Below, piece by piece: positions 4,936 through 63,400 of a DNA stretch of 64,000 nucleotides; position 1 is the first letter of the stretch, and each line of letters opens with the position of its first letter. The stretch comes from Leucoraja erinacea. Lineage: Eukaryota. Both the position numbers and the translations under genes were made by a program. The notes under the pieces were generated by a model that made no database searches, had not been told where the DNA came from, and was given only the letters and a program-made list of their open reading frames with translations. Where the stretch lies: assembly GCF_028641065.1 (NCBI RefSeq), contig NC_073386.1, forward strand, positions 21,328,001-21,392,000. Direction: 5' to 3'.

Positions 4936-5312
4936 CACAAAAATTACCACACATAAACTTCTCTGTGGTAGTGCAGTGATCTGCAGAACTGATGGGAAAC
5001 GCTTTAACCTACAGCAACCACACTCCAGAAAATTATAGGGACAGTTCCAATTGTAAGGGAGATGGAAATGCAAAAGTGCAGGTTTATTTACCAAACCAAT
5101 TATTTGATTCAAGCTGACAGGGATTTTGATCTTTAAAGTTAGCATTTTCTTGTTAGTTTTTTCTCCTTTTCACATTTTGTCGTTTGGCTCCTTGTTATTT
5201 ATACAAAGATATATGAATCAATAGTCAGTCAACGGTCAATCAGCAGTTGATAATATGGAGAATAAACATCAGTCAAGTATAAATATTAAAGTTTAAACAA
5301 AGCTAATTGTAC

Positions 5313-5411
5313 CTTATCTGAGTTAATAATATCCTTTTTACTGATGGGCGTGTTTTCAGAATCACCACCTCCCAGCTCCAGGATATCACGAACATCTGCC
5401 CCGGTAGACAT
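5313..5411 (-). CDS. DMAP1: DMAP1 first coding exon (exon 5313-5421, ATG at 5411)
   Basis: ctacag|GTACACAAAA ATG: MSTGADVRDILELGGGDSENTPISKKDIINSDK|gtacaa, matching human MATGADVRDILELGG...ISKKDIINPDK. Confidence 0.96.
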
Positions 5412-6236
5412 TTTTGTGTACCTGTAGAAATTCCAAGAGTAAATTTACGAACAACACTAACAAGTACAACCATTAGTAATTACAATTATAATTTTGTCAC
5501 TTGAACATGAGATCTAAATTTTATAACTGACAAACATTTGATTTTCGCAACTCTAAATCAAACCCAAAAATACCCTTTAATAAAATCTGACAATGTGCAC
5601 TTTAACCACATGTGATTTTTTTTCTATTACAAATCTCAAATTGTGTAGTACAGAGGCAAATAGATAAATGGTGGGTCTTTGTCCCAAACATTATGGAGGG
5701 CACTGTATGTTTCATGACTCTTGCCTGCTATGCATCACCACTGTGGAATCTCTTTTATGAATCCTCTACCTATTCATCACTGACCCATGCATGACCCACA
5801 CAAACTTCATTCTGACTTTCCTCATCCAGCACAGCCCTCTGCTCCTTTGATTTTCACATGCATTTTAGTGGAAGCCAAATTGCATGCATTTTAGTGGAAG
5901 CCAAATCGGTTAACTTTTCACCTCCACTACTCGTGGTTGCAAGTATTTCATTCTCACAACATTTGGAAAAATTCCTGGTAATTGTCTTACATTGATTGGG
6001 AATAAGAGCTCCAAAAGGTTGAGTGTAGGGACCAGATGCAGTCTGCAGCACTGAACCAATTAACAACAAATCTGTTGACTCTGTATACTTTCACAGCGTA
6101 CTACTGCTGTACACTTGGACTGTATCCGAGATGCTCATCTAAGATGCATCTTAATGTGCATATATAGTGATACCTGCAGTGAACTGGAAATAAAAATGAA
6201 TTTTACTATACCTCAGTGCATGTGACAAATAAAGTA

Positions 6237-8557: not shown

Positions 8558-8769
8558 TAAGGTACACAAAAATGCTGGAGAAACTCAGCGGGTGCAGCAG
8601 CATCTATGGAGCGAAGGAAATGGGCAACGTTTCGGGCCAAAACCCTTCTTCAGACGTTGCCCGAAATGTTGCCTATTTCCTTCACTCCTTAGATCCTGCT
8701 GCACCCGCTGAGTTTCTCCAGCTTTTTTGTGTATCTTCGATTTTCCAGCATCTGCAGTTCCTTCTTAAA
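8558..8769. mobile_element. Palindromic mini Penelope-like element (inverted pLTR pair) with 11-bp TSD
   Basis: Arms ~8559-8636 and ~8659-8738 are reverse complements; flanked by AACTGATTGTG at 8547-8557 and 8770-8780. Confidence 0.85.
8624..8654 (-). ncRNA. Minimal hammerhead ribozyme motif in Penelope pLTR
   Basis: Minus strand reads CUGAAGA-A-GGGU(UUUG)GCCC-GAAAC-GUU. Confidence 0.55.
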
Positions 8770-9769
8770 AACTGATTGTGCAATGCCAATTCAATGTATC
8801 CTCCTCCTGAGGATCTTTGCTAATCACCCAAAATTGATGATTTCTGGTTATTGATACACCATTCAACATACTTTATCAAAACCTTCAATAACATGGAGAG
8901 ATATTAAAACTCCCATATTCCTCTTTGCTCTAAAGAAACCTATGTTTCATAATATCAGTAACCTCAATGTGATTTAGCACCATGCAGTACTTTTGAAATG
9001 TAGTTATCGTTCTAATGTAGGAAAAAAACAGCCAATTTGTATTCAGCAAAATACTGGCGACAAAATACCAAATAATCCCCCTGCAAAATGATTTCTTCTT
9101 TCTGGGATTTGCTTTAATATCATATGAAAAGATGGTACCTCCAATATTATAGTACTCCCTCAATACTACACTGAAGAGTTGGGTGGTCATGTGAGGACAT
9201 AGATTTATTTGTATGGCCCAGCGAGGAAAACGTCCAGACATAACCACCTCGTAGCTAACAAAAGTCACTTATCCTTAACCTAATTCTAACAAATGTCTTC
9301 TGTCCTTTCAGTAATAATTAAAGCTTAGTGCCACCATTGGACAAAATACAACAGAAACGATCCAAACACCATTTTTTCAAATAAAGGTTCTTTACTATTT
9401 TCTTGCTTTCATAATCTATGCCTTTTGCAGCGCTCATGATTTTCTTTGATCTTTTAATAACTTTATCAACTGAACTCCCATTTTCAATCACCTGTGTACA
9501 CACAGCTTAGGGATCTTGTATACCCCTTTATTATTTTCTCCACTTGGTTTATTTATCTTTCTTCATTCTTTGTTCCAATTATTTCATGTCGCATTTCAGT
9601 GCAGTATATTTGCTCTGCCTTGTGACCACTCATTTCAAAATGTCTATATTCTTCCATGGTTATAAAGGGCCACTTTAAATTTAGAAAGAGGTTCAAAGAA
9701 GATTAACAATTGCTAAGTATTAGGTAGTACAATTAGCAAACGTGAGCATTTTTTAAAATATAAGTTTTA

Positions 9770-12520: not shown

Positions 12521-12756
12521 TTAATAAAAATGTAAACCAACCCAGATATTAAATGATGACAAAAGGAAATGTAAATACGTGTTTACAAACTGCTGGGGTA
12601 ACTCAACGGGACAGGATTGGCGACGTTTCTGGGATGAGAAGTTTAAAAAGTGACCAAGTGGCGAATTGCAACCACGTGAAACTAATTTATTTGTTATAAT
12701 TAAGTCTCCAAATGTCACACCTTGGTTTTGCCTGACTTATGTCTATATGCTTCAAT

Positions 12757-12855
12757 CGAAGGTAGACACAAAATGCTGGAGTAACTCAGCGGGACAGACA
12801 GCACCTCTGGAGAGAAAGAATGGGTGACGTTTCGGGTCGAGACCCTTCTTCAGAA
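12757..12855 (-). mobile_element. Penelope-like pLTR fragment
   Basis: GTAGACACAAAATGCTGGAGTAACTCAGCGGG...GACGTTTCGGGTCGAGACCCTTCTTCAG. Confidence 0.8.
12823..12854 (-). ncRNA. Minimal hammerhead ribozyme motif (intact core, GUC cleavage triplet)
   Basis: Minus strand reads CUGAAGA-A-GGGU(CUCG)ACCC-GAAAC-GUC. Confidence 0.65.
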
Positions 12856-13197: not shown

Positions 13198-13265
13198 CCC
13201 AAAAACGAGCTGAGTTTTTTTCCCTTTAATTTTCCGACTGCGCTTTCCGCAGAACAGTGTGTGTA
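13198..13265 (-). other. DMAP1: Putative DMAP1 non-coding first exon
   Basis: Strong donor GGG|gtgagt at 13197-13192 directly downstream of a housekeeping promoter cluster; the 5' end is approximate. Confidence 0.5.
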
Positions 13266-13269
13266 GGCC

Positions 13270-13352
13270 GAGGTGCATTGTGGGAGATGGCTCTGCGCAT
13301 GTGCGGATTACGCGGCACGTCGGGAATTGTAGTTCGAAACGTGGGGCGGGAA
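13270..13352 (-). promoter_or_regulatory. DMAP1 promoter: ZNF143/THAP11 (ACTACAATTCCC), NRF1-like site and GC box
   Basis: GGGAATTGTAGT 13322-13333, GCATTGTGGGA 13275-13285, TGCGCATGTGCG ~13294-13305, GGGGCGGG ~13343-13350, all in CpG-rich sequence. Confidence 0.7.
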
Positions 13353-13371: not shown

Positions 13372-13678
13372 CACAAAATTGCGGAATAATTCAGTGGGTC
13401 AGGCAGCACCTCTGGAGAATAGGATAGACTGAATGTGGGGTTCGATCTGAAATGCCGCCCATTCCTTCTTGTTCTCTCCAGAGATGCTGAATGTCCCGAA
13501 ACCAGAAGGGTTTCGGCCCGAAACGTCGCCTATTTCCTTCGCTCCATAGATGCTGCTGCACCCGCTGAGTTTCTCCAGCTTTTCTGTGTAACCTTCGATT
13601 CTCCAGCATCTGCAGTTCCCTCTTAAAAACTAAATGCTGAATGTCCCGCTGAGTTTCTACAGCAATTTGTGTCTAGTG
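13372..13678. mobile_element. Nested Penelope pLTR fragments
   Basis: A younger copy at 13499-13633 sits inside an older palindromic copy, with a 15-bp TSD ATGCTGAATGTCCCG (13484-13498, 13634-13648). Confidence 0.75.
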
Positions 13679-14091
13679 TAAATTTACAGAAATGTGAGGC
13701 GGCACCGGTGGAAAGAGAACCAAAGTTAATGTTTCGTGTGTAGGACCATTCATCAAACGGATTTTAATGTGATAGGTTTCGAAACCAAAATGACCAGCTC
13801 TGTTTCTAATCCTACAGGTATTGTATTGATATACTGAGTTTTTTCCAGCAATTTCTGTTTTTATTTTAAAATAGCTAGTATTTTTTCCACCGTTATTTTC
13901 AGTGTTTTAGAGGAGTTGATGGATTCGCCAATACTGGAAACGTTTCACAGATCATGTATCTAAACTGTAAAAGGCTCGATTGCTAACTAGATAGTACGCA
14001 ACAAAAACTTTTCACTGTACTTCGGTACACGTGATATAAAGTAAATTGAGAAGCCGTTGAAAGCAGCGGCTGAGATGATCAGTGAAACATT

Positions 14092-14262
14092 AAGCGCTGA
14101 AATAACTCAACGCGTCGGGCGCATCTGGGGAGAGACTGGACAGACGACGTTTCGGGACGGGATCCATCGTCAATCTGAAGCTGACCCCCGAGACGTCGTC
14201 TGTCCATTCTCTCCACTGATGTGCACGTGCTGCCTGATCCGGTGAGTTACTCCAGCATATAT
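14092..14262. mobile_element. Palindromic Penelope pLTR remnant at the edge of the HORMAD CpG island
   Basis: GGACAGACGACGTTTCGGG ... CCCGAGACGTCGTCTGTCC inverted arms; GAGTTACTCCAGCA end. Confidence 0.65.
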
Positions 14263-14279
14263 GTCCAGTGTCCGCAATC

Positions 14280-18005: not shown

Positions 18006-18955
18006 CACATGGAGTGCAAGTGAACAAGAGTATAAAGAAATAATACACATATAACAACAGGAAACAAGGTGAAGCCTCCAAGGGCAGAATTTTTTAAAAG
18101 AAGCACGAAAGGTGAAAGATAAAGTATACTGAAAAGATAATAAAAACCTTAAGAGTACGTATGGATAATAAAGCAGGGGAGAACCCGACATGTTAAACCA
18201 CACACAAAATGGGGCAGCATAAGAAAATGAGAGGAAGGGAAAAGATCACTGAGATAGATGGGGGACCAGAGTTGCCAACAAGGTTGTTCACTACAATTTG
18301 GAATAATTGTACTACCAAACATTTCTCACTATTTAAAATTAGATATTTTACACAAACATTGTGTATACTTTAAAACTAAGTAATATTTTTATCAAAAATA
18401 GGGAAACATTTAATTCAGAATGCAGTAATTAAGACATCAATAAATTCTTTGTTACTATGTGATGATGTTATAGCCTAACATTTGCAGAATGAATTGCTGA
18501 AGCAAGGTCTATATCACCATTTAAGAATAAGCAATTTTATTAGGTGACGGAAAAGGGATATAACAAATAGAATACATGTAGGATTAGAGCTGATAATAAA
18601 CAATTGTGGAACGAAAGGCAAAATGCTGAAGTAAAAACCAATTGGGGGGAAAAAAATGTTTTCTCTTTTCACAGATTCTGCATAACCTGATCAATATGTG
18701 TTTTGGTTGGCCCAAATTCCTATTTTTATGTAGTAATTTCTATGTTAATCCTTTTTTGTATTGTGAATAGTAAAATGTTGTAGTACAGGAGTATAAATAA
18801 TGCAGGTACGTTTGCTTTGTTCATACTGAATTTACTATTGACGAAAAAGAACAATGTTTCTTACTTATTTTAATTTCTGACTTTGAATCTATCATATATC
18901 TTTCTGCTACAGGGTTACAATTCATTAGAAATACCAAAAAAGCCTTCCTGTTTCT

Positions 18956-19003
18956 ATGGCAACCGCACAACAAATGCGAGTCTCTGAAAAGCAAAAATCT
19001 GGG
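18956..19003 (+). CDS. zte38: HORMAD1-like (probable zte38) coding exon 1 (exon starts 18913)
   Basis: ctacag|...ATG MATAQQMRVSEKQKSG|gtaaat; MATAQ start is shared with HORMAD1 and HORMAD2. Confidence 0.85.
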
Positions 19004-22091: not shown

Positions 22092-23015
22092 TAATAATAA
22101 TAATAATAATAATAAATTTTATTTATGGGCGCCTTTCAAGAGTCTCAAGGACACCTTACAAAAATTTAGCAGGTAGAGGAAAAACATGTAAGGGGAATGA
22201 AATAAATAGTAGAGACATGACTAGTACACAAAGTAAAGACAGAATTCAATACAAAACACAATATGAGGCAATTAATGCACAGATGAAAAGGGAAGGGGAC
22301 GTGGGGCTAAGGATAGGCAGAGGTGAAGAGATGGGTCTTGAGGCGGGACTGGAAGACGGTGAGGGACACGGAATTGCGGATCAGTTGGGGGAGGGAGTTC
22401 CAGAGCCTGGGAGCTGCCCTGGAGAAGGCTCTGTCCCCAAAACTGCGGAGGTTGGACTTGTGGATGGAGAGGAAACCGGCTGATGTGGATCTGAGGGACC
22501 TTGAGGGTTGGTAGGGGGAGAGGAGGTCAGTGAGATATGGGGGGGGGCAGATGGTGGAGGGCTTTGTAGGTGAGGATCAGGACTTTGTAGTTGATCCGGT
22601 GGGAGATGGGAAGCCAGTGAAGTTGTTTGAGGACTGGAGTGATGTGATGCCAGGATTTGGTGTGGGTGATAGTCAGGTGGCTGCGTTCTGGACCAGTTGG
22701 AGTCGGTTGATGTAGGTGGAGCTGATGCCAAGGAGAAGTGAGTTGCAGTAGTCCAGTCGGGAGGAGATGAAGGCATGGATGAGTCTTTCAGCAGCGGGAG
22801 GTGTGAGAGAGGGTCTGAGTTTGGCGATGTTGCGGAGATGAAAGAAGGAGGTTTTAATGACATGGCGGATGTGAGGCTCAAGGGAGAGGGTGGAATCAAA
22901 GATCACGCCAGGGATGCGGGCCTGGGGAGATGGGGAGATGGTGGTGCCGTCGATGGTGAGAGTGGGGTTATTGATTTTGCTGAGTGGCTTTGGAGCCTAT
23001 GAGGAGGAATTCTGT
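22092..23015 (-). mobile_element. L2 LINE 3' fragment with (TAA)n tail
   Basis: IFDSTLSLEPHIRHVIKTSFFHLRNIAKLRPSLT...AFISSRLDYCNSLL...LQLVQNAA. Confidence 0.9.
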
Positions 23016-28621: not shown

Positions 28622-29025
28622 GTAAGTACATTCCAAAAATTTACACGTTTATTATTGGATGTAAGATTTTGAAACCAACAATTTATTAGATTTCTATGAT
28701 ATATTCTTGGATTTAATACAATTATACTACACTCCTGTACTTAATACAAACATTTCAAGATAAGTATGAACATAAAAATAAATGTACGTTTGAAATGAAG
28801 TATGAATAGAAATAATTTGAATTGTACAGGATTGTTAATTACTGTAGACAAAAGATTGCTTAAAATGTAGATTCTATTAAAATTAATACATCTGTATCAA
28901 CTGAGTTGGCGACCAGAGCTCTCATCATCCTTCTTAGATTACTTAAAATCTCTTGATATTATTCAAAAAGCACCGAGTTCTAATGAAGTCAAGCATTCTG
29001 TATGCTTTCTTCACTGCTCTATATA

Positions 29026-30635
29026 CAGTGGCTTGCAAAGGTTTTCATACCCCTTGAACTTTTCCACATTGTGTCAAGTTACAACCACAGACGTAAATGT
29101 ATTTTATTGGGATTTTATGTGATAGACCAACACAAAGTGGTGCATAATGGTGAAGTGGAAGGAAAATGATATATGGTTTGCAAATTGTTTTACAAATAAA
29201 AAACTGAAAAGTGTGGCGTGCAAAAGTATTCAGCCCCCCTGAGTCAATACTTTGTAGAACCACCTTTCGCTGTAATTACAGTTGCAAGTCTTTTGGGGTA
29301 TGTCTCTACCAGTTTTGCACATCTAGAGACTGAAATTTTTGCCCATTCTTTGCAAAATAGCTCAAGCTCAGTCAGATTGGATGGAGAGCGTCTGAACAGC
29401 AATTTTCAAGTCTTGCCAGAGATTCTCAATTGGATTTAGGTCTGGACTTTGACTGGGCCATTCTAACACATGAATGTGCTTTGATCTAAACCATTCCATT
29501 GTAGCTCTGGCTGTATGTTTAGGGTCGTTGTCCTGCTGGAAGGTGAACCTTCGCCCCAGTCTCAAGTCTTTTGCAGACTGTAACAGGTTTTCTTCCAAGA
29601 TTGCCCTGTATTTGGCGCCATCCATCTTCCCATCAACTGACCAGCTTCCCTGTTCCTGCTGAAGAAAAGCATCCCCACAGCATGATGCTGCCACCACCAT
29701 GTTTCACAGTGGGGATGGTGTGTTCAGGGTGATGTGCAGTGTTAGTTTTCCGCCACACATAGCGTTTTGCATTTAGGCCAAAAACGTCAATTTTGGTCTC
29801 ATCTGACCAGAGCACCTTCCTCCACATGTTTGCTGTGTCCCCCGCATGGCTTGTGGCAAACTGCAAATGGGACTTCTTATGGCTTTTTTTCAACAATGGC
29901 TTTCTTCTTGCCACTCTTCCATAAAGGCCCGATTTGTGGAGTGCACGACTAATAGTTGTCCTGTGGACAGATTCTCCCACCTGAGCTGTGGATCTCTGCA
30001 GCTCCTCCAGAGTTACCATGGGCCACTTGGCTGCTTCTCTGATCAATGCTCTCCTTGCCCGGCCTATCAGTTTAGGTGGATGTCCATGTCTTGGTAGGTT
30101 TGCAGTTGTGCCATACTCTTTCCATTTTCGGATGATGGATTAAACAGTGCTCCGTGAGATGTTCAAAGTTTGGGATATTTTTTTATAACCTAACCCTGCT
30201 TTAAACTTTTTTACAACTTTATCCCTGACCTGTCTGATGTGTTCCTTGGGCTTCATGATGCTGTTTGTTCACTAATATTCTCTAACAAACCTCCGAGGCC
30301 TTCACAGAACAGCTGTATTTATACTGAGATTAGATTACACACAAGTTGACTCTATTTACTAATTAGGTAACTTCTGAAGGCAATTGGTTGCACTGGATTT
30401 TATTTAGGGGTATCAGAGTAAAGGGGGCTGAATATTTTTGCACACCACACTTTTCAGTATTTTATTTGTTTAAAAAATTGAAAACCATGTATCATTTTCC
30501 TTCCACTTCACAATTATGTGCCAATTTGTGTTGGTCTATCACATAAAATCCCAATAAAATACATTTACGTTTGTGGTTGTAACGTGACAAAATGTGGAAA
30601 AGTTCAAGGGGTATGATTACTTTTGCAAGCCACTG
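29026..30635 (-). mobile_element. Full-length Tc1 (DD34E) DNA transposon, disabled
   Basis: ~210-bp TIRs CAGTGGCTTGCAAA.../...TTTGCAAGCCACTG, TA TSD (29024-29025, 30636-30637); inserted into a minus-strand CR1 fragment. Confidence 0.96.
29244..30256 (-). pseudogene. Tc1 transposase pseudogene
   Basis: MKPKEH...GYKKISQTLNISRSTV* (premature stop); [14 protein letters not shown] and [11 protein letters not shown] motifs with D-34-E spacing; frameshifts near 29640 and 29390. Confidence 0.92.
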
Positions 30636-31203
30636 TACCTCTGCTGCCGATTTCAGGGATCTTTGTTTCTCATTATTCCCTATTGCCCTACCATTGGTAT
30701 ATATATTGCCCTTACTTAATCCCACAAAATGCATCACTTCACTCTTATCAGGATTAAATTCCATTTGCCATTGCTCAGCCCAAGTTGCTGGCTAATCAAT
30801 ATCCTTCTACAGTCTAAACAACACTACCAACAATACCACAAATGATGGAGCTGGAATCAATCAGTCAACAAACTTGGGAGCTCCAGGCTTGGAAGAACAT
30901 GTGCCAAAGTCACAAACTTGATTTCTTTCTCAGTGGTAATTCCAATTGCCAACATTTATGAGTAGTATCTGGCCCAGCACCGTGGCCTCCATAAAGGGTG
31001 ATTATTTGGATATAGTGTGGAAAGTGTGGCAGTGCTGTCAAAATCTTCATCTTGGCTTAAGTTATGTGTTCAGGAGAGAGGGAAAAGTATTGTGAGAAAA
31101 AGAGAAACCACATTAATTTAAGTCGCATAGGATGATAGAAGAAAAACTTGCATATTAAATGAAAATATGTTGAAATTTTGAAAATTTAATTTTTTTTTTT
31201 TAG

Positions 31204-31667: not shown

Positions 31668-32750
31668 AGCAAAGAGTAGGAGTAAACGGGTCCTTTTCAC
31701 AATGGCTGGCAGTGACTAGTGGGGTACCGCAAGGCTCAGTGCTGTGACCCCAGCTATTTACAATATATATTAATGATCTGGATGAGGGAATTGAAGGCAA
31801 TATCTCCAAGTTTGCGGATGACACTAAGCTGGGGGGCAGTGTTAGCTGTGAGGAGGATGCTAGGAGACTGCAAGGTGACTTGGATAGGCTGGGTGACTGG
31901 GCAAATGTTTGGCAGATGCAGTATAATGTGGATAAATGTGAGGTTATCCATTTTGGTGGCAAAAACGGGAAAGCAGACTATTATCTAAATGGTGGTCGAT
32001 TGGGAAAGGGGGAGATGCAGCGAGACCTGGGTGTCATGGTACACCAGTCATTGAAGGTAGGCATGCAGGTGCAGAAGGCAGTAAAGAAAGCAAATGGTAT
32101 GTTAGCTTTCATTGCAAAAGGATTTGAGTATAGGAGCAGGGAGGTTCTACTGCAGTTGTACAGGGTCTTGGTGAGACCACACCTGGAGTATTGCGTACAG
32201 GAGTTTTGGTCTCCAAATCTGAGGAAGGACATTATTGCCATAGAGGGAGTGCAGAGACGGTTCACCAGACTGATTCCTGGGATGTCAGGACTGTCTTATG
32301 AAGAAAGACTGGATAGACTTGGTTTATACTCTCTAGAATTTAGGGGATTGAGAGGGGATCTTATAGAAACGTACAAAATTCTTAAGGGGTTGGACAGGCT
32401 AGATGCAGGAAGATTGTTCCCGATGTTAGGGAAGTCCAGGACAAGGGGTCACAGCTTAAGGATAAGGGGGAAATCCTTTAAAACCGAGATGAGAAGAACT
32501 TTTTTCACACAGAGAGTGGTGAATCTCTGGAACTCTCTGCCACAGACGGTAGTTGAGGCCAGTTCATTGGCTATATTTAAGAGGGAGTTAGATGTGACCC
32601 TTGTGGCTAAGGGGATCAGGTGGTATGGAGAGAAGGCAGGTACGGGATACTGAGTTGGATGATCAGCCATGATCATATTGAATGGCGGTGCAGGCTCGAA
32701 GGGCTGAATGGCCTACTCCTGCACCTAATTTCTATGTTTCTATGTTTCTT
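31668..32750 (+). mobile_element. Young 5'-truncated CR1 LINE (RT C-terminus and 3' UTR)
   Basis: VTSGVPQGSVL*..ISKFADDTKLGG; ORF 31880-32653 (KCEVIHFG...LYRVLVRPHLEYC...FFTQRVVNLWNSLP); (TTCTATGT)n tail. Confidence 0.95.
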
Positions 32751-33349
32751 CTATTACATTATCTCTTCATCGATACTCAAGGAAATGACGAGCCCTGACT
32801 GCAATTTGTCCTCACAACTTTAGCTCTGGTATCATTCTGATAAATCTGCACTGTATCCATTTTGTGCCCGGTATATATTCTCTGAAATGCTGTGCCCAAA
32901 ACAAAATGCAACTTTCAACCAGTCGAATGGTGGCATACTGTAACTACACTCCTTTGTTTTACTGCCACCAGCCCAGAATACAGAGTTGCAGGTGTTCACA
33001 TTTGAGGATGGAGCGAGTTTGTGGCCTTAGAGTAACATCTAATACTTGAGCTTTTTGTGAATAGAGTTACTCACACCCAAAGTGTGAGCTTTTAAACCCA
33101 TTAATTATTTTAAGACAAGGTTATAAATGTATTTAAGTAAAAATTAAAACTCCAGATCTGTATGGTTAAATGAATTTTCAGGAAAAGCCAAACGCGCAAT
33201 GTAACTTGATGGGAGGTGATCTTTGAGTTCGTGGTAAGGAATAAGCAGCAAAGTCTTCTGGCTATTTTTGAATTCACAAAATATCAATTACCTAAAACAA
33301 ATACCAAAGGTACAAAGAAATCTTGTCATATGTAATTAAATTCACACAG

Positions 33350-33501
33350 CAAAAACAAGCATATTGGAACAGAAGTAAACTTTCAAGATACAAAAAAAGC
33401 TTCCGTACTGCTCATCCGTAAGCTGTTTGTCTTGATGCAGAGCCTGGAAATTCTTCCTAATGATGTGTCTCTGACAATGAAACTTTTCTATTACGATGAA
33501 G
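33350..33501 (+). CDS. zte38: HORMAD1-like coding exon 8 (152 nt)
   Basis: KNKHIGTEVNFQDTKKASVLLIRKLFVLMQSLEILPNDVSLTMKLFYYDE|gtaaat. Confidence 0.95.
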
Positions 33502-33789
33502 GTAAATGCAGTTTACTGGTATCAGAATTGTTTTATTCCATTCTATATTCCTATATATTAGCTGCTTTGGATACGTATGTAACTAAGTTCTAGTATGGAG
33601 GCTTACAACAATGCTTTGCTTGCAGAATTTTTGATTATTTTGAGTTTTATTTTTGCAACCCCTGCACTTGCAAACAAACCCATAGGATAGACCAGCAGAT
33701 CAGATAATATTGGTGAATAAAAAAACATTTACAAATGGATAACTTCGAGCATAACTACAGCAAATGCCAGACAAACCTGAATTTGTTGA

Positions 33790-34290
33790 TAACTAACGCC
33801 CCCCCACCCAACATCTGTATTCACCTATCACTTGCCAACCTTTGTCCCGCCCCCACCTCTTTTCCAACTTCTCCAACCCCACTCCTGTCATTCTGAGGAA
33901 GCCCAAATCGTAATGTCTGTCATCCATCCATCCATTCCTCCACAGATAGTGCTTGACGCACAGTTCCTCCAGTACTTGTTTAACTCGAGGTTCCAGCATT
34001 TACTGTTTCCTGTGTCTTAATTTGTTGAATTTAATATTAAGTCTGGAAGGCTGCAATATACACAGAAGGAAGATGAGGTGCTGATGCTTAAGACCATTAT
34101 AAAGCAAAAACAAATTAGTCAGAATGAGAGTGGGAAGAATTAAATGGCATAACTAGAAGCTCAGTATTGCTCTCCTGCTGACTGAATGCAAATGCTTAGT
34201 AAAGCAGGCACCTAATCTGCATTTGGTTTCTCAGATGTAGGGAAGACCAAATTGTGAATTTCAAATGCAATACTCTGGAAGAAGTGCAGG
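33790..34290. mobile_element. Degenerate Penelope-like fragments
   Basis: CACCTATCACTTGCCA...CTGAGGAAG...TTCCAGCAT pLTR on +, followed by a decayed endonuclease region on -. Confidence 0.5.
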
Positions 34291-35997
34291 TGAATTATGT
34301 GGTTAAAAATGCAGTAATTTTAGATTGGATCCAAATACATTTATTGTAATATGCTCGGGTGCAATGAAATTATTTGTTTACATCAACTTAATTGCGTACA
34401 CAGTATACATGATAACGATAGATACAACAACAATAAATACAATAAATTATCGAGCAATCTGAAGTAGTGTAAAAAATAATTAAATTGCAATAAAAACCAG
34501 CTGAATGAAGTAGACTACCAGTAAGTAATATGCAGACATCTGGAATTGGATGTGAAAGAGGTGATCCGTTCAGGGATCGGATAGCAATGCAAAGAAGCTG
34601 TTCTTAAGTTTGGACTCCCGGGCTATCAAGCTCCTGTAACTTCTTCCATAAGATAGAAGAGAGCAACCATGACACAAAGTTCCTAATCTCTTTCCACACC
34701 TGCTTCTTTCAAGTGCATCATTTATTTAAAGCATTGGGCATGTACATCGATTCCAGCAATGACTATTGATCTTTTATTGCTATTGACGAAATGGTAGTGA
34801 GATGCCTTCTTTAACTACTTCAGTTCACAGTGTAGTCAGGCAGGAAGTTTCAGGATTTAGACCCAGTGACAATCTTATATTTCTTAAATAGTGTGATAGA
34901 GGAAAACTTACAGCTGGGTATTTTGCATGCATTTGCTTCCCATGTCTTCTTTCATGGTGAATGTTTGGGGTTTTGGAGTGCTATTGGATTCTATCCATTC
35001 CAGTTACTGGGTGTAGATGATTGAGTAAATGGTTAGGTGGTATGGCAGTTGAGTGGCTGCTTTGTCTTGGATTGTGTTGCTTTCAGAATGTTGATGGAGC
35101 TTTTACATCCAGTCAAATGCAAAGTAGTCCATCGCATTCCCAATATTGTTTGTAGATAATGGAAATGTTTGGGACAGCAGACATGAACCACTCACCATGC
35201 ACATACTCGGGCTCTGATCTGCTATTGTAGCCATGGTTTTCATATGGTCCAGTTTCTTGTCTTGGGGATGCAGTTTTTTTCCACCCAGGATGATCATGGT
35301 GAGGAACTCCGTAATGGTAATGTGTTTGAATGCCAAAGGTAGTTTGTCACACTGTCTCGTGTTGGAGATGATCTATGCTGGCTTGTAGGGCATGAATATT
35401 TCATTTTTGAAGGGGTATAAATGGAATTAAACTAGCCCATCATAGAAACCTTTAAAATATGACATGATGATTTTAAAGATGCATGGATTTTTAAAAGTAG
35501 TGTATTTGAAAATTAGCTGACTGACAACAAAAAGTGATTTTGAATAAAGAATGTGTGCATGTAATTTCAATTGCTGCTTTTAGTACTCTGGCACTATGGA
35601 TACTGTATATTGATGCTAGGTATTTAATTATTTTGGCCACCCCAATAGGGACTTCAATCCCTAAAAATAACCCAGAGTACAATCGGTGATCATTCTTTTC
35701 AATGTATCTAGTACATATCAGTGGTTCAGTTCTTCTCAATGTATACATCTAAAACATAATAATTTGTGGCATTTATGATATTACTGATTACTATGTGCTT
35801 GTCCGCAGTTTTTGTTTTATTTTAGATCTCTATACTACCAATTTTCCCCTAAATTTCCAGCCTTTTTCCTGAAGATTTAAAGGGAAACACCCATTGGCCC
35901 TAATTCTCTTTCTGTTTTAATTAACTGTCCAAGCAGTTTATAAAACATATTCCCACTTCATATCAGTTTTCCTGATTCATATATTTTTAAATAACAG

Positions 35998-36233
35998 TGA
36001 CTCCTCCTGACTATCAGCCACCAGGGTTTAAAAAAGGTGAGTGTGATGCTCTGTGGTTTGAAGGAACTCCCGTCCATTTTAAAGTTGGTGATGTGCCCAC
36101 TCCATTCCATATGATGAAAGTACGGGTCACCACAGAGAAAGACACAATGGAACAGCTGGAGAAAGAAAACATGTTACAAAAGGAAAATGAATCTTCACAA
36201 CAGAAAATGGAGGAAGTCAAATCTCCCAAAAGT
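35998..36233 (+). CDS. zte38: HORMAD1-like coding exon 9 (236 nt; safety-belt end of HORMA domain)
   Basis: [48 protein letters not shown]...KSPKS|gtaagt. Confidence 0.95.
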
Positions 36234-36505
36234 GTAAGTTCCTATTATTTTTTAAAACTGCTTTTGGAATATTAGATATTTAAAACAGCAAGTTCAATAA
36301 GAAACTAACGTGACATGGATAAAAAATTCATAAAATACTGTTGATTCTGAGCAGTAAAAACGTGGGGATATTTATGATGCAACATCAAAAGTAACTTTCT
36401 AATGGCTTACGGAGATTGTGTTCAAAATTTCACAACCATGTATTCCAGCTATCATATTGATTTTCCAATTAGTGTGTTAATCAAGTTTGATTTCATTTGG
36501 CATAG

Positions 36506-41640: not shown

Positions 41641-41739
41641 GCTTTAAAATGATTACTGTAAGATGGCTAAAATATTAAAATTTCCTTTTTAAATTTTTTG
41701 ATTTATAATTTGTGTGCTTCTGGATGTATTTCAGTCTGA

Positions 41740-41944
41740 AGATAGACACAAAATGCTGGAGTAACAGGACAAGCAGCATCTTTGGAGAGAAAGAATGGGT
41801 GATGCTTCGGGTCTGTAGAAGACTCGATCTGAAACATCAGCCATTCCTTCTTTCCAGAGATGTTGCCTGCTGCGCTGAGTTACAGCAACATTTTGTGTCT
41901 AGGTTGTAAACCAGCATCTGCAGTTCCTTCCTACACATCCTAGA
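41740..41944. mobile_element. Palindromic mini Penelope-like element with 13-bp TSD
   Basis: AGACACAAAATGCTGGAGTAAC ... GTTACAGCAACATTTTGTGTCT arms; TATTTCAGTCTGA at 41727-41739 and 41945-41957. Confidence 0.8.
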
Positions 41945-44639: not shown

Positions 44640-45186
44640 ATGACCCGCTAAGTCTGCCTAAACCTACCTAACCTCCCGGTTGCTAATCACTTTAACTCCC
44701 CCTCCCATTCCCACACTGACCTTTCTGTCCTGGGCCTTCTCCATTGTCAGAGTGAGGCCCAGCGCAAATTAGGAGGAACAGCACGTCATATTTTGCTTGG
44801 GCTGCTTACACCCCAGCAGTATGAACATTGACTTCCTTAATTTCAAGTAATCCTTGCTTTTCCTCTCTATCCATCTTTCCCCCTTCGCAGATCTCCGACC
44901 AGTCTGACTCTTCGACTATATTTTATCTCTGCTTTGTTGTTATCTCCTCCTAGCTAACAATGATCTATTCTACATTTTCCTTGATCTGCATTCCCTTTGT
45001 CCTATTTTCACACCCCACACACCCATATCTATGTACCTCCTCCTCCCTGACATTAGCCTGCAGAAGTGTCTCGACTCGAAACGTTACCCATTCCTTCACT
45101 CCAGGTATGCTGTCTGTCCCGCTAAGTTACTCCAGTATTTTGTGTGTATCTTTGGTTTAAACCACCATCTGCAGTTCCTTCCTACC
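44640..45186 (+). mobile_element. Penelope-like element 3' part (GIY-YIG C-terminus and pLTR)
   Basis: LPVANHFNSP.HSHTDLSVLGLLHCQSEAQRKL.EEQH.IF.LG.LHP..MNIDF. Confidence 0.85.
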
Positions 45187-47254: not shown

Positions 47255-48020
47255 AAACATTGATTGTTAGGTGAGCTCCCCTTCCCCTCCCCCCACTCAC
47301 CTTCAACAACACCACAGTCAGATCTGTGGAGTCATTTAAGTTCCTTGGAACCATCATCTCCAAGGACCTTAAATGGGAGGCCACCATCGACTCCAGTCAA
47401 AAAGGCCCAACAGAGGATGTACTTCCTGCGACAGCTGATCAAACACAATCCGCGACACGCCCTCCCCCTTCCCAGTTCTCCCACCTGTCTTAATTAACTT
47501 CAAATAGCCCTTGCTTTCCCTCTCTCTCCTTCCCCTTCCCAGTTCTCCCACCAGTCTTACTGTCTTCGACTACATTCTATCTGTCCTGCCCACTCGCCTG
47601 ACATCAGTCTGAAGAAGGGTCTCGACCCGAAACGTCACCCATTCCTTCTCTCAGGAGATGCTGCCTAACCTGCTAAGTTACTCCAGCATTTTGTGTCTAC
47701 CTGCCACAGGCAATTATGGTCATCTCCGACCCCTCTCACCCTGGCCACAAACTCTTTAAAGTACCTCCGGACTGTCAAAGCCGCCACAGCCAGACATAAA
47801 AACAGCTTTTTTCCATGAGTAGTAGCTCCATTCAACAGCCAAAAGTCTGTAGCCTCCTTTTGCTCGGGTATTTTATTTTATTCTTCACATGTTTAAATTA
47901 TAATGTTTTATTTTTAATTGTCTACTGTATATCATGCTGTTATCCTTGTGTGCAAAGTACCAAGGCAAATTCCTTGTATGTATACATACTTAGCTAATAA
48001 AATGTATTCAATTCAATTCA
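47255..48020 (+). mobile_element. Rex1/Babar LINE 3' fragment interrupted by a Penelope pLTR (~47458-47700)
   Basis: VESFKFLGTIISKDLKWEATID / VKKAQQRMYFLRQL; tail AATAAAATGT(ATTCA)n. Confidence 0.8.
47605..47640 (+). ncRNA. Minimal hammerhead ribozyme motif (intact core, GUC)
   Basis: agU-CUGAAGA-A-GGGU(CUCG)ACCC-GAAAC-GUC^-ACc; predicted cut after 47636. Confidence 0.65.
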
Positions 48021-48735: not shown

Positions 48736-50665
48736 GAAATTACTTTAATTTTCATCAGAATCCTGAATTCAATAAAATTAATCAAATGCATTTACCACTT
48801 GGGTTATATTGCCGACAAAACATTCCCAACTGTTGTTTCTCTCTGGTTCTGTGAAAAAGCATTTACTTTACCAAACTGATATCCTCTGCCATACCCTACC
48901 ATACTACTCAGCTCAATCACTCACAGGCTGTTTTAACTCATTGTGTACTGGTTCGACATGACAATAACATTTTTTGGCCTAGAGTAAGCTTATTCCTACA
49001 TAACCCGACAGAAGACAATGACTCTGGGGGGGGGGACCAAAACAATTCCTTATAGAATGCAATTTCATTTAAAAATTATCAATTCTGATTTCAAAGGTAA
49101 ATTTATTTTGATATAATCTACAATTTAAATGTAGATTAGAATGTACAGCTGCAATCATGAATATAATCCATGAATGTCTTTCAAATTTTAAACAGTGGTT
49201 TGAATTTTATCTGGAATAAATAAATCTTTGCATATGTCAAAATTGAAGCATATAAAACTAGAAACCAGTCATTAGTCTTCATTATTTCAGATCTCTTCAT
49301 CTTGTTTTTAAAAAAATTATTATATATATTATATATATTTGTTAAACTCAATTGTGATAAAGTTGACCATGCCATAAATCATTTTGCGCATCTCCAAATC
49401 TACTTAATGTGTTTGCAAATGGCTATATTTCAAAAATATGTATAATGTATGAGGCAGTGATGTGTACATTTCTTCCTTTTGCTCTTAGTAAGGAGTAAAA
49501 ATCATTAATTTGCCAACAATTTATTAAAATGTATTACTTCGCAGGTTCTCAGCATATTTCTTACTTTGTTCATATCCATCCAAGAGACATGTAGTATTCT
49601 CCAACTCCTGTTTCCATAAGCCTGTGAAGGAGCATAATCTTGAACTTTCCATGAATAATGCCAATGGAAATTTACTACTATTGTTAATAAAAAAGGACTA
49701 TAGCAATGTGTTTTGTATTTTATTGTGATACATGAGATGTGTTAAGAAATGGATACAGCCTCTTTAATGCAAAAATCTATAAAAATGCATTTTATCAAGT
49801 CATAGCCTATATTGCTTATTACAATTTAAATTCTTCCAGATCAATAATGACAGATTGCAACGGATGAAATTGAAAAGACTGAAATCAAATTTAATTCAAA
49901 TGTTACACGTAGGAATAGATGGAATTGGATTGATCTAATATAGACCAATTTTCAACAACGCATATGGTTGCAATGACATTTTTGTTCATTTTCAGATTTT
50001 ATCCCTGCCTATGATGTCACATTTACTTGTTACACTGTGTTTAATACATGTGCAGGGGATTGAAACAGTTTGATGGAACTGCTCTAACAGACTGAAAATT
50101 CAAAAACGGGTATTAACATTGGAATCCCATCCACATTCCATCAGTAATCTGGAAAAGAAACCATGCAAAATGCCAAAAGTTATCAGACAAGCCTGCAAAG
50201 AAACCAATTGTGTGCCAGATAGAATAAAATTAACCGGCAGAGTTATATCTGATATGACAATCATTATACTATTAATTTATTGTTATCACTGACCTCAATT
50301 CCATTTTTTTCCTTGATGATAACTTGAACAAGCATTTGAAAATAATGAAATTGTGATTGGATTCAGAAGTGAATTTCTAGCAAATTGCAATTTTTGACTC
50401 AACTCTTCTCGTTTATTCAATGTTAGTAGTTGATGAGAAGTGAGAAACCCAAAGGTTTAGCTGCAATGTGTAACAAGTCTGATCAGAAATTCAGGTGGAC
50501 CTAAAAATGTTACAAACAAAACGACCATTGTGTGTTGGGCAGCCTTCCCTCCTACTTTGTTTAATATTTTTTTTTGCATGGACCGAAATAAAATGTACAT
50601 ACCGTTCCTATTTCTGCGTTGATGGACTGGGAGGAACAGGTGTTCTTGTGGTTATAGTTTCCCAG

Positions 50666-51146
50666 GTAGACAAAAATGCTGGAGAAACTCAGCGGGTGCG
50701 GCAGCATCAATGGAGCGAAGGAAATAGGCAATGTTTCGGGCCGAAACCCTTCTTCAGACTGATGCAGGGTGGGGGGTGGGGGGGGACGAAAAGAAGAAAG
50801 GAAGAGGAGGAGCCGGAGGGAAGAGGGAGAGCTGAGAAGGGTAGGAGACAGCAAGGGTTGCCAGAAATTGTAGAAGTCACTGTTCAGGCTCCTGGAATGC
50901 AGACTGCCCAAGCAGAATATGAGGTGCTGCTCCTCCAGTTTCCGGTGGTGCTCATTCTGGCCATGGAGGAGGCCCAGGACAGAAAGCTCGGAATGGGAGG
51001 GGTAGTTGAAGTGCTAAGCCACAGGGAGATCAGGTTGGTTAATGCGGACTGAGCGGAGGTGTTCGGCGAAACGATCGGCAAGCCTACGCTTGGTCTCACG
51101 GATGTAGATCAGCTGACATCTAGAGCAGCGGATGCAATAGATGAGG
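50666..51146 (-). mobile_element. 5'-truncated Penelope-like element (GIY-YIG endonuclease and pLTR) with 13-bp TSD
   Basis: LIYCIRCSRCQLIYIRETKRRLADRFAEHLRSVR; hammerhead-like core at 50730-50757; TSD TATAGTTTCCCAG at 50653-50665 and 51147-51159. Confidence 0.92.
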
Positions 51147-51667
51147 TATAGTTTCCCAGAATGAGATCAAACATAGTAAAGTGATTAGTAGTGACTTTTA
51201 GTGACTGATGCTGCATTTAATGTATATTTCAATTAAAAGACCAAGCAAAATGACAGACTTAAAGAACAACATCTCATATTCTGCTTGGGTATCTTACAAC
51301 TTAACTGAATTAATACTGAATACTCCGATTTCAGGTAATTCCCCCTTATGCTCCCTCTTGTCCCTGCCTTTCTACCCGAGTGCCAAATTTCCCTTTCACC
51401 TTCCTCTCTTTGCCCGTTTCCTGTTCCCTCCCACCCTTACCCAGCCTTCCAGCTTTACATTTCACTCACCATTGACCAGAAACTGAACTGGACCAGCCAC
51501 ATCAAACTGATCACAAAACAAATTAATGACTGCATATACCATCGAGAGCATCCTACTTTATAACAACCCCCAACAAAAACATTTCCACAATCTTTAAAAT
51601 ATAATCAGAAGCACAAAAATACTAATTTCCACTTGGCTGAATGAGGGCCATGCCAACAATACCCAAC

Positions 51668-51753
51668 AAGGTTTTGGCCCGAAACGTTGCCTATTTCCTT
51701 CGCTCCACAGATGCTGCTGCACCCGCTGAGTTTCTCCAGCACTTTTGTCTACC
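51668..51753 (+). mobile_element. Penelope pLTR fragment
   Basis: GGTTTTGGCCCGAAACGTTGCCTATTTCCTTCGCTCC...TTTTGTCTACC. Confidence 0.75.
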
Positions 51754-52171
51754 CGTCATGCTTGACACCATCCAGGGTAAAAGCAGGCAAAGATAATCAC
51801 TTCTTCTACCAGCACCAGCGCTATGACTGAGACAGGCAGGTCTACTAAATGTACCAAATCACATATTCTGGCTTGGAAATGCATCACCCTTTTTAATTAT
51901 CCACATTTAGACCCTGTGACACTCAACTAACACTGGGAGTACCTTCATCAAAAGACTGGTGATTCAAGAAGGCACCACCACCCTCTTCAAGGACGAAAGG
52001 TATGAATAATAAACATTTGTCTCACTAGTGATGCCCACAACTCACAAATGAATTTATAAACGTACAAGATTAGGAATGGTAGAAAGCTGACATGGACTGA
52101 TTAGGTTAAGTGTCCTGCTTCTATGATATGGGCTATTTTGCATTATTACTTCCAATTACTGTTCAGAATGA

Positions 52172-54129: not shown

Positions 54130-54417
54130 TCATTTTGTCAGTCCAAGCAGTTTAAATCTTTCAGCAGGAGGTGTAGCAAAGTACTGCATTTGCTCTTCAG
54201 AGTATCTTTCCTCTACATCAATGATATCTCTGTAGGTCCAATCCTGCCAGTGGAAATTAAACCTATTGAGAAGTTGGATCTTTTTTTCATCGGTTGACAC
54301 GCAGTCCACAGGCAGCTTTTGCTCGAGGGATGGGACCTGGACATCAGGAAATATCAGGACTCCTCGTATGGCAAACCAGCCTCCGTAACGTGGATGAATG
54401 CAGACTCCATACAATTT
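54130..54417 (-). CDS. MMACHC: MMACHC exon 4 (terminal)
   Basis: gatag|[24 protein letters not shown]...[12 protein letters not shown]...[17 protein letters not shown]. Confidence 0.97.
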
Positions 54418-54797
54418 CTATCAGGAAAATAATTATTTTTGTTAAGTTGATAATATGCATGTTCCTACTCTGACCTCTTTTGAAACTCTCTCACAGAGAT
54501 GCCCTAGTCTCAAAGACCATTAAAAGATAGTCACGAAATACAAATTAAAGGAGTTCAATAGTTCACAATATTACGCTCAGCTACTTCTCTTCTTTTGAGG
54601 GCATAACTTGCTTATAATTGTCTACCACTATGGCATAACAGATGTAAGCACAAATCATTTCCACTTTGCACCACATGTTGAAACTCTATGCTGTGCCACA
54701 ATACTGTTCTTCTATCATGTTGGATCCTTTATATATTTATTTCTAATTGCAGAATGTTTCCCTTCAAATATCAAGTATGATCAATTGGTAGAAGTCT

Positions 54798-55092
54798 TTA
54801 GAAATACAGCATGGAAACAGGCTTTCAGCCCACTGATCCGCGCTGATCAGCGATCACCCCGTACACTAGCACTATCCTACACACGGGATAATTTACAATT
54901 TTACCGAGGCCAATTAACCTACAAACTTGTACGTCTTTGGAATGTGGGAGGAAACCCGAGCACCCAGAGAAAACTCATGCAGTCACAGGGGGAATGTACA
55001 AAGTCCATACAGACAGCACCCAGGATCAGGATCGAACATGGGTCTCTGGAGCTGTAAAACAGCAACTCTACTGCTGCATCACTGTGCTGCCC
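54798..55092 (-). mobile_element. HE1/V-SINE (tRNA-derived)
   Basis: Minus-strand head GGGCAGCACAGTGATGCAGCAGTAGAG...GTTCGATCCTG, then V-domain and CR1-like tail. Confidence 0.85.
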
Positions 55093-55629
55093 CTGTTTTT
55101 GAATCTGCCCAACCGGAAAGGGGAGAAGAGGGAACGACCAGGGTGCGAGTTGTCCTTGAATATATGGGCTGCTTTATCAAGGCAGCGTAGTTTAGATAGA
55201 GTCATTGGGGGCAGGGAGGTGGTGGCGGGTTAAAGCCAGTTAGCGAGACGGTCTTGACTGCGTCACAACACCCCACATTGTTGCGCAGTCTTGAGCTGAG
55301 CAATTGCAATGCTTTCTATGGGCATCGGTGGAAATTGTAGATCAGAGTTCTAGACCAGAGTGCTAGATCAGAGTTCTATAGGCTTGAACACTGCCATGGT
55401 GCTATGAGTATCATAGAATAATCCACTCAATTTCTCTCATGCTGAGAGGCAACCAAATCTTTCATCATCGCTAGGTCTAAGAGTGGCAACTTAACATGTA
55501 CAAGGCATCACATACTTAAACTTTGTACCTTTTAAACAACATATTTTCCAACTTTAGAAATAATATATCATGATTAGATGGGATTAGATGGAATGAGAAC
55601 TATTTTCGGTGCTGGCTACAAGTTGAGCA

Positions 55630-56165
55630 GTGTGAACACGTCAATGAGTCTTACCAATTTCTACAGATTAACCATGAAAAGCATCCTATTCGGATGCAGC
55701 ACAGCTTGGCATTGCAACTGCTGCCCAAGACTGCGAGAAATTGTGGAGTGTTGTGAATGCAATCAAGATCATCTTGCAAACTAGCATTCCTCCCCATTGA
55801 CTCTATCTAAACTACGCTGCCTACATATTCAAAGGCCACACATCCTGCTTGTTCCCTCTTCTCTCCTCTCCTGTTGGACAGGAGGTGTATAAGCTTGAAA
55901 GCATAGATCATCAGATTAGAAATAACTTCTTCCCTGCTGTTATTAATCTCCAACAGATCTCGCATGCTAAGGATAAATTCCCATCTGCCAATCTACCTCA
56001 TTCTGGCTTTTGCATTTTTTACCTGCAATTTCTCTGCAGCTGCAACACTTAATTCTGCATTCTTTCCTTTCCCTTTTTGCACCAATTATCATTCTCATGT
56101 ACAGTATGATTTACCTGGATAAGACAAAACAAAGTTTTGCCACTGCTTCAGTATACGACAATAAT
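55630..56165 (+). mobile_element. Old Rex1-like LINE 3' fragment
   Basis: LTNFYRLTMKSILFGCSTAW...RNNFFPAVI; GACAATAA tail. Confidence 0.55.
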
Positions 56166-56494
56166 ATATCAAAGCAATTTTTGTGACTGGTTAAGATAGA
56201 ACACATGTATCTGCTTTAATTAATCCACTCAATGACTGGATGATATTCCTGCATTGGAAAGAACTTGCTTTTATAATCTCACATTATTCCATTGCAGTTC
56301 ACTGCCAATTCACATGTTGTCATCATTGTAATCTAAGGTAACAAAATAATCAACACATGTGGAACAGGATCTTTAAAAATATAATGAATAATCAATTTGC
56401 CTAAATATTATAGAGCTAAAGGTTGGCCAAACTGCAATGTAGCAAAATATCCCTCTGCCCCTAAACCAAAAGCAGAAATTTATTTAATTCTTAC

Positions 56495-56647
56495 TTTTTC
56501 TCCCCAGGGGTTTTTCTGCACATCTTTCATTTGGTAATAATAGGCCGCTCCAGCCTCATGTGCAGCTGTTTGTACCAAAACCTTTGGCCTTCGATTAGGA
56601 AGCAACTCAAAGTCATGGATGGTTTCAATCCTGTGATCAGGGAAATT
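56495..56647 (-). CDS. MMACHC: MMACHC exon 3 (153 nt)
   Basis: [51 protein letters not shown]|gtaaga. Confidence 0.96.
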
Positions 56648-62204: not shown

Positions 62205-63400
62205 TATCTGACCAAGTGAGACAAAAGCATTGATAGGTTGTGAATTGTGAAACTAATGGAATGTAGATGGAAGGGGAGATTAAAACAAGTGTAACTCCAT
62301 GTGTGACACAGGGGAGAGAGGGGGTGGAGAAGAAGTGGGGGGCGGGGGGTGTTGTGGGTGATGAAGGGAGTGGAGGTAGGGCTTTGGAGTTACCTAAAAT
62401 TGGACAATTCAATGTTCATATTGTTGGGTTGTAAGCTTCCCATGCAGAATATGAGATGCTTTTCCTTCAGTTTGCACGTATGTATGCTCTGGCAATGGAG
62501 AAGGAACAAGACTGAAAGGTCATAATGGTTAGCAAGTGTTCAGTGAAATGATTGCCGGGTCTATGCTTGATCTCACTGATGTACAGGAGGGCACATTGGG
62601 AACACTGGATGCAGTAGATGAGGTTGGAGGAGGTGCATGTGAACCTCTGTTACACCCGGAAGGGCTGCTGTGGTCCCTGAATGGAGGTGAGGGAGGAGCT
62701 ATAAGGACAGGTGTTACACCTTGTGTGGTTGTAGGGGAAAGATGTTATAGGGGTGGTTTGGTGGGAAGGGTTGCATGAACCAAGGAGTTGTGGAGGAAGC
62801 GGTCTCTGTGGAAAGGGGTGAGGATGAGTTGATGTGACTGGTAGTGAGATCTTGTTGAGGGTGATGGCAATGTTCGACGTTGATGTGTTGAATGCATTGA
62901 ATGTGTTGAATGTGGAGTGAAAGATGAGGACGATGGAAGTTAGTGGTAAAGGTCCGTAGAAGGCCAGAAGAGGAATGTTGGAGATGGGAGAAGAGGCCGT
63001 CACTGGGAGGTGAGGACTCCTTCCCATAGAAAAAGGTCTGTAGGCGGAGGTGACAGATGAAAGGATCTGCATCATAGCAGTCCCGGAATTTGTCGAGGTG
63101 GGGCAGAGGAATACAAAGCTAAGGCCTCTATTGAGGACTGGTCATTCTGTATCAGAAAGTGGGAGGTTAGGGGGGATTGTGAAAACACAACGGGGGTGAG
63201 AGCCACGATCAGAGGGGTGGAAGATGACTGGCAAGGTACTATGGGAGGACAATGGGGGTTCAGAGAAGAGGGTGGTGCGAGTAGTGGTGTACAGGTGGGG
63301 AGTAGTAGAAATAGTGTGATACGGGTGGGAGGGTAGTAGAAGTAACATGGTATGGGGGGGGGGGAAGTAATAATGGCAATAAAGGGGGCTTTTTTGGGGG
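62205..63400 (-). mobile_element. Degenerate Penelope-like element (Cys-rich linker and GIY-YIG)
   Basis: ...NHTRCNTCPYSSSLTSIQGPQQPFRV followed by an NLIYCIQCSQC-like region. Confidence 0.7.

Follow-up and report, generated by a model that had tools for sequence, protein, structure and literature searches.

The short motif that recurs through this stretch of the Leucoraja erinacea genome is, most probably, a minimal type I hammerhead ribozyme that heads a Penelope-like element (PLE) of Neptune type, and its dispersed copies were likely made from uncleaved RNA and would be inert in host transcripts. The stretch, which we call the window, is 64,000 nucleotides long (contig NC_073386.1, positions 21,328,001 to 21,392,000). 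This class of ribozyme is already known; what the skate adds is scale and a fossil record.

The focal copy, at 47609-47636 on the forward strand, equals the consensus of Fig S3 in Cervera and De la Pena 2014 (PMC4209133). C3 to A9 occupy 47609-47615, followed by an extra A at 47616, stem II at 47617-47628, G12 to A15.1 at 47629-47632, positions 15.2 and 16.2 at 47633-47634, U16.1 at 47635 and C17 at 47636. The predicted cut falls at 47636/47637. A 2-bp stem I (47607..47638, +) pairs 47607-47608 with 47637-47638, and a conserved TCAGT (47604-47608, +) lies just 5' of the core. The initial annotation named the core, the extra A, a 4-bp stem II, GAAA, AC/GU and UH, and all of these parts are there. 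They are also what the consensus in PMC4209133 gives for metazoan PLE minimal hammerheads: CUGANGA with one extra base after A9, a G10.1-C11.1 pair, GAAA, a loopless palindromic 15.2/16.2 and UH. The extra A had been likened to the CChMVd hammerhead, but this analogy is superfluous: minimal hammerheads of PLEs regularly have an unpaired base between 9 and 10.1. In the skate it is present in 95% of 198 copies.

A pattern search of the 64-kb window with up to 3 mismatches matched 5 places where 0.01 would be expected by chance, and a profile search found 23 family fragments. The string first reported at 47609-47636 (+) is an exact match. Its minus-strand relative at 12823-12853 is exact as well, but its true limits are 12826-12853; the one given as 8624-8653 (-) is present, but it spans 8626-8653, its loop II is UUUG and not UUCG, and its triplet is GUU. 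The mutated copy at 50730-50757 (-) exists and has A for G16.2, so its stem III palindrome is broken. Truncated copies had been placed at 13505 and around 51668; we see them at 13504 (+) and 51669 (+), both 5'-truncated and without CUGA. To these can be added a degenerate copy at 45058-45085 (+) that the initial annotation lacked. An Rfam scan returned 74 matches at E up to 5, none of them a hammerhead, and such a scan is uninformative for minimal motifs.

The focal copy belongs to a 5'-truncated PLE end (47495..47702, +) in which a 3' UTR rich in pyrimidines is followed by the hammerhead and some 65 nt of the pLTR beyond it. Loci L019 and L014, both of which have an endonuclease C-terminus upstream, match this piece at 87% identity over 216 nt. 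The broken-palindrome hammerhead (50757-50730) is part of a PLE 3' end at 50664..51147 (-) that retains a GIY-YIG remnant and UTR and is 83% identical over 491 nt to the L061 RT-EN element. An older 3' end at 44645..45184 (+) contains an endonuclease remnant, UTR, the degenerate hammerhead at 45058-45085 and a full tail. By contrast with these PLE 3' ends, the copy at 12751..12854 (-), which is sense to DMAP1, is a solo pLTR; its core is at 12853-12826, it begins at -1, its stem I is 1 bp, and it has a possible 7-bp target duplication. The copy at 8653 is one half of a head-to-head inverted pair (8559..8773, both strands) with an 11-bp target duplication on its flanks; its members are 8657-8555 (-), with the core at 8653-8626, and 8660-8773 (+), which starts within stem II. 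Two further head-to-head pairs, each on both strands, are degenerate (41727..41937) or old and degenerate (14080..14275). The 5'-truncated copies are at 13504..13632 (+), with a 15-bp target duplication, and at 51669..51776 (+), beginning at stem II. The former sits within an older inverted pair at 13362-13498, and at 13362-13691 three nested PLE pieces lie no more than about 400 bp 5' of the putative first exon of DMAP1. The one with the 15-bp duplication, placed inside the older pair, is the youngest of them. Finally, a decayed, internally deleted PLE ORF remnant at 62397..63188 (-) keeps the N-terminal part, linker and endonuclease at 67-79% identity to L061, L014 and L211, and no hammerhead was detected in it. 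Other mobile elements share the window. A Tc1/Sleeping Beauty-like transposon at 29024-30637 has inverted ends of about 215 bp that are 91% alike and transposase remnants matching PF01498 and PF25787, and LINE-like reverse transcriptase frame fragments occur at 31748-32653 (+, 301 codons), 22673-22996 (-, 107) and 11832-12185 (+, 117).

The carrier appears to be a Neptune-type PLE of cartilaginous fish, with the clade judged by linker motif. The motif lies 130-400 nt downstream of the C-terminus of a GIY-YIG endonuclease, a domain with 101,987 first-look candidates in the genome. Locus L061 has a 601-codon frame consisting of reverse transcriptase (RT), a C-x4-C-x2-C cysteine-rich linker and endonuclease. 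Its Pfam matches, RVT_1 at E 1.4e-4 and GIY-YIG at E 0.008, are both under Pfam cut-offs, and the relatives P0016 and P0015 reach the GIY-YIG or RVT_1 cut-off. There are 615 protein relatives at E below 1e-20, with best identities of 62-67% in sharks and rays. A non-exhaustive search found no intact full-length PLE ORF. A cysteine-rich linker marks Neptune or Nematis. The domain order of RT, cysteine-rich linker and C-terminal GIY-YIG is that of the Neptune PLEs in Craig et al. 2021 (bioRxiv 2021.04.23.441226) and Arkhipova et al. 2013 (PMC3846280), and so are the 5' truncation, partial tandems, inverted pLTRs, optional 30-40 nt tail and target duplications of about 10 bp. Those accounts attribute solo pLTRs to recombination or deletion, whereas many solos here have target duplications of their own and a common 5' boundary.

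A 5' walk along the ORF places the so-called 3' repeat at the front of the unit. Counting from C3 as position 0, the unit runs from TCAGT through the hammerhead (0 to +29), about 100 nt of pLTR and an optional tail, which is seen as two 3'-end peaks among copies, to an ATG near +165. The ORF then encodes RT, the cysteine-rich linker and GIY-YIG; after it comes a UTR rich in pyrimidines, and read-through of this UTR leads to the next hammerhead. The claim of a PLE minimal type I hammerhead within a pLTR is supported: the motif lies behind the endonuclease end and before the ORF start and matches the PMC4209133 consensus. We chose 30 loci by the DNA of the ORF N-terminus, and in 25 of them the pLTR is immediately upstream. 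Setting aside a duplicate and a chimera leaves 23 loci, in which the repeat starts at -8 to +5 in 5, starts at +17 to +59 in 9, and forms a partial tandem in 9 (five of these on small contigs and possibly not independent). Two details of the carrier deserve mention. At L229-L246 the ORF ATG, about +160 from C3, overlaps a donor-like AAG/GTATG, so a PLE intron or alternative splice is possible. Loci L188, L197, L200, L204, L206, L208 and L209 have in common an unrelated upstream segment that ends in a palindromic stretch, which suggests a chimeric or non-autonomous subfamily.

The family is very large. Exact matches to a degenerate pattern demanding the core and stems I-III give 44,594 intact copies genome-wide, and one exact 31-mer has 10,833 genome matches against 0 for its control. 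We sampled the 15 largest contigs with 112 evenly spaced 10-kb regions; this 1.12 Mb holds 416 fragments (reversed control 0), which extrapolates to roughly 8e5 genome-wide. For comparison, PMC4209133 gives about 4,000 for coelacanth and about 9,000 for Xenopus with its own descriptor. Its vertebrate examples come from Xena, Poseidon and Neptune, and its table and alignment are without cartilaginous fish. We found no paper describing the motif in sharks or skates in a search outside Repbase and subscription journals. As in the PLE minimal hammerheads described in PMC4209133, the motifs are mostly single and dispersed, with opposite-strand pairs; 47 of 214 in our sample are in inverted arrangement. 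The animal non-LTR retrozymes of Li et al. 2026 (bioRxiv 10.64898/2026.07.22.740005), reported there in one chondrichthyan genome, are similar in being non-coding, dispersed monomers with a type I hammerhead derived from PLE pLTRs. However, retrozymes as described there are tandem arrays with a ribozyme per unit, and the window copies are solos, inverted pairs and PLE 3' ends. We reject a retrozyme identity, since the window has no tandem array with a complete ribozyme per unit and, among 107 same-strand pairs in the sample, only 7 are within 160 nt of each other.

Every feature assessed by sequence makes the motif a member of the PLE minimal hammerheads. It is this fit to a known consensus, not covariation among the copies, that supports the hammerhead structure. 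The two pairs of helix I are kept in 83% and 89% of copies with no two-sided covariation, and a third pair is matched in 15% of 196 copies, which is chance level. Stems I and II, at 2 and 4 bp, are at the short end of the PLE range in PMC4209133 but within it. The pair at G10.1-C11.1 is G-C in 171 and G.U in 37 of 259 copies. The palindromic 15.2/16.2, with no loop III, is CG in 164 of 332, and CpG decay to CA (77) and TG (50) accounts for most of the remainder. Stem II had been said to keep its pairing between subfamilies; the pairs do stay compatible, but the changes are one-sided (U-A 205, U.G 44, C-G 2; n=275). Across the stems pair changes are one-sided, and paired bases are just as frequent as they would be if the two sides varied independently, as counted among copies of one genome. 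CUGANGA...GAAA...UH is present in the 47609, 12853 and 8653 copies. Of 177 sampled full-span copies without insertions, 81 keep the core and 33 are fully intact.

In the majority sequences of the subfamilies the core is constant and loop II, position 17, N7 and the flanks vary; three clusters, each small or old, provide exceptions to the constant core. The decay of single copies is close to neutral. The initial annotation proposed comparing core with flank across copies, and when this is done the core has 113 mismatches in 1,980 (5.7%) and the flank 403 in 5,315 (7.6%), which is nearly equal base by base. The difference has p = 0.006 overall and is confounded by the A-rich core and the choice of flank positions; by site, decay is 12% at N7 and 28% at CpG sites. 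The comparison is ill-posed because a dead copy accumulates changes almost neutrally even if the ribozyme of its source element works.

In predicted folds the core pairs with pyrimidines behind it, stem II has a probability no higher than 0.05 in contexts of 103 and 133 nt, and the active dimer, at -6.1 kcal/mol, lies about 19 above the best dimer fold at -25.3, in calculations that ignore tertiary contacts and protein. From these models and the 2-bp stems I and III we infer a ribozyme that would be off by default. One could go further and argue that the hammerhead is vestigial, a signal kept for a promoter or protein-binding role that does not cut even in source elements. The 2-bp stem I with no two-sided covariation, the active fold far above the predicted minimum, downstream pLTR positions about as conserved as the core, and the GUU triplet of the youngest subfamily (6.8% from its own majority) could all be read in this way. 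We consider it quite improbable, however: every catalytic position fits the hammerhead consensus across subfamilies, PMC4209133 gives PLEs of Culex, Oikopleura and Drosophila a helix I of 2 bp as well, and the motif of the anole element PAc cuts once protein is added (Frangieh et al. 2024, PMC11167929). A second small hairpin lies 3' of the hammerhead, at 47672-47687 in the window and +63 to +78 from C3 in sampled copies. Its pairing is kept in 75-92%, one loop base varies and there is no covariation; it is a candidate protein-binding or priming signal.

We also mapped where the insertions begin, using 396 copies anchored downstream. The largest group, 176, start between -14 and +2 next to flank that is either foreign or inverted; another 51 extend into UTR, 96 start within the motif, 11 start at +25 to +31 and 62 farther 3'. 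In 115 solos the consensus base is kept at 0.78 for G at -2, 0.66 for A at -3 and 0.45 for C at -4, against 0.93, 0.93 and 0.91 at the same positions in UTR-linked copies. The 5' boundary is spread over 0 to -8, and the ends of local alignments are imprecise. Target duplications of 9-14 bp are found in 20 of 89 solos (1 in the shifted control), and the 3' ends have two peaks, one at +96 to +105 and one at +128 to +130. Starts at +26 to +30 are rare, 8 of 396, under neighbouring rates, and just 1 of 141 among young copies. Because starts cluster 5' of the core and rarely at the cut, the insertions likely copy uncleaved RNA that starts a few bases 5' of the core.

The opposing reading is that the ribozyme is active in vivo and that tandem transcripts yield unit-length or circular RNA templates, as Cervera and De la Pena have proposed. 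It would take the boundary near -3 as RT stalling or template switching at the base of the ribozyme, or as exonuclease trimming, and the boundary does fall on the 5' arm of stem I. The 9 partial tandems in 23 loci speak for it, as do stems I and II that shift to compatible pairs only and a core that is the same in the majorities of the three large subfamilies, which differ at N7, in loop II and in the flanks. There is also a modest excess of boundaries at +28. Genome-wide raw counts are 171 at +26, 334 at +28, 516 at +30 and 178 at +32, the +30 count being inflated by single-base deletions in a C run, to go by the listed rows. After correction the +28 excess over +26 and +32 is about 1.4-1.6, in about 2% of 43,320 anchored copies. 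We inspected 30 of these +28 loci. By our reading 11 are junctions of inverted copies, 7 have a motif that is present apart from a small deletion or insertion, 3 are head-to-tail joins with ACC in common, and 9, including two duplicates, have foreign flank; none has a target duplication. As a cleavage footprint the excess is rejected; it is largely junction microhomology, inversions and deletions. There may still be a small footprint at +28, below 1% of copies, because of the 1.4-1.6-fold excess. The active-ribozyme reading also has to face the near absence of young copies starting at the cut, and copies with UTR, hammerhead and tail, which require an uncut 3' ribozyme or a religated circle. 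We judge it unlikely.

Splicing finds no support as the source of the boundary. For a donor in the endonuclease stop region, an intron ending just 5' of the motif, as in D. virilis, is rejected since a pattern joining that region to the core has 0 genome matches, and the solos have no upstream exon in common. PMC2377424 describes an internal promoter with a start 46 bp upstream of the intron.

With copying from uncleaved RNA as the preferred reading, the following mechanism can be proposed. The element protein would prime reverse transcription inside the RNA at two 3'-end points, as in the anole PAc. Priming in the 3' repeat would give ORF-bearing, 5'-truncated copies; priming in the first repeat would run off at the RNA 5' end and leave solos of 100-130 nt, and the run-off product after fold-back would give the head-to-head pairs. 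The RNA 5' end would likely be a transcription start in TCAGT, 2-8 nt 5' of the core, a sequence that in our view resembles an initiator. The ribozyme, off by default, would require the element protein together with a second copy. Cleavage would take off a leader of about 30 nt or split tandem units, and cut RNA would rarely be copied. The solos, hundreds of thousands of them at 100-130 nt, would then be strong-stop copies that map the capped start and the priming sites, and the ribozyme a protein-gated switch. This fuller claim, of strong-stop solos and a gated switch, we put forward tentatively, leaning somewhat towards doubt.

The anole element PAc (Anolis carolinensis Poseidon; PMC11167929) is a close parallel to our scheme. 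Its ribozyme cuts only with protein, and uncut RNA is the dominant template. Both elements have the hammerhead at the junction of pLTR and ORF, copies that retain an uncut ribozyme, and two alternative 3' ends about 30 nt apart (the tail), which in PAc are internal priming sites; in both, RNA-seq ends are absent at the cut site. The differences are that the PAc ORF starts within stem II whereas the skate ATG is about 165 nt downstream, that PAc is of the Poseidon clade whereas the skate element has the cysteine-rich linker, and that cleavage is known in PAc whereas in the skate it is predicted from sequence.

It was also suggested that the host DMAP1 pre-mRNA carries potential self-cleavage sites. 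The DMAP1 ATG exon follows a splice acceptor at 5312..5421 (-), and downstream exons outside the window match PF16282 (E 1e-21) and include SANT domain exons. A candidate non-coding first exon at 13198..13297 (-) ends at a GTGAGT donor. Poly(A) reads from a related organism span 13190-13297, and there are none at 13163-13189. The placement of the 8653 and 12853 copies in intron 1 therefore becomes probable from read coverage ending past the donor, with a putative junction to the ATG exon; that they are sense and upstream of the ATG exon is plain. The focal 47609 copy lies elsewhere, between HORMA-domain exons (+) and MMACHC (-). The former are two exons at 33336-36272 with HORMA matches (E 8.5e-11 and 1.1e-6), presumably of a HORMAD1-like gene, which may span 47609, in which case the focal copy would be sense and intronic. 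The MMACHC exons are at 54133-56647 (-; PF16690, E 1.8e-46 and 2.6e-20).

Cleavage of host pre-mRNAs such as DMAP1 by intact sense copies, in cis or through trans-dimers, has in its favor the 44,594 intact copies, the two that are sense to DMAP1, and abundant family RNA in poly(A) libraries (18,000-19,000 reads per 1.6-1.9 billion letters). The copies themselves argue otherwise. The 12853 copy lacks half of stem I, with 1 of 2 pairs, and has a predicted stem II probability of 0.004. For the 8653 copy, 4.2 kb away, folding predicts a hairpin of -143 kcal/mol in which it is held by its inverted twin, with a stem II probability of 0, and its GUU triplet is of a kind that is cleaved weakly. Intact copies are equally common on each strand (22,217 and 22,377, not gene-resolved). 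Published minimal hammerheads cleave weakly even as dimers, and 8 of 9 Xenopus retrozyme dimers were uncut. Three raw-read runs have no RNA ends at the predicted cut, no many-end site appears in 4 of 4 runs, and depth is continuous; these reads are weak evidence, being from a related organism, apparently unstranded, from fragmented libraries and pooled over all copies. Adapter ends at 12818 in run X21 were considered as a cleavage mark and rejected, as they are antisense to the ribozyme and fit an ATGGG priming artefact if, as we assume, the adapter is a template-switch adapter. The self-cleavage claim is therefore not supported for these copies: cutting of the DMAP1 transcript by them is unlikely, a host-regulatory role at DMAP1 is likewise unlikely, and for host pre-mRNAs in general we regard the idea as very improbable indeed.

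The fossil record matters alongside the scale. With roughly 8e5 fragments, insertion boundaries become readable as a map of RNA start, priming sites and the cut state of the ribozyme. The boundaries left in vivo agree with the in vitro result from the anole that the template is uncut RNA. If the fuller reading is true, the gated ribozyme would remove the capped leader and withdraw RNA from the template or mRNA pool, and this would give the PLE hammerheads a testable function.
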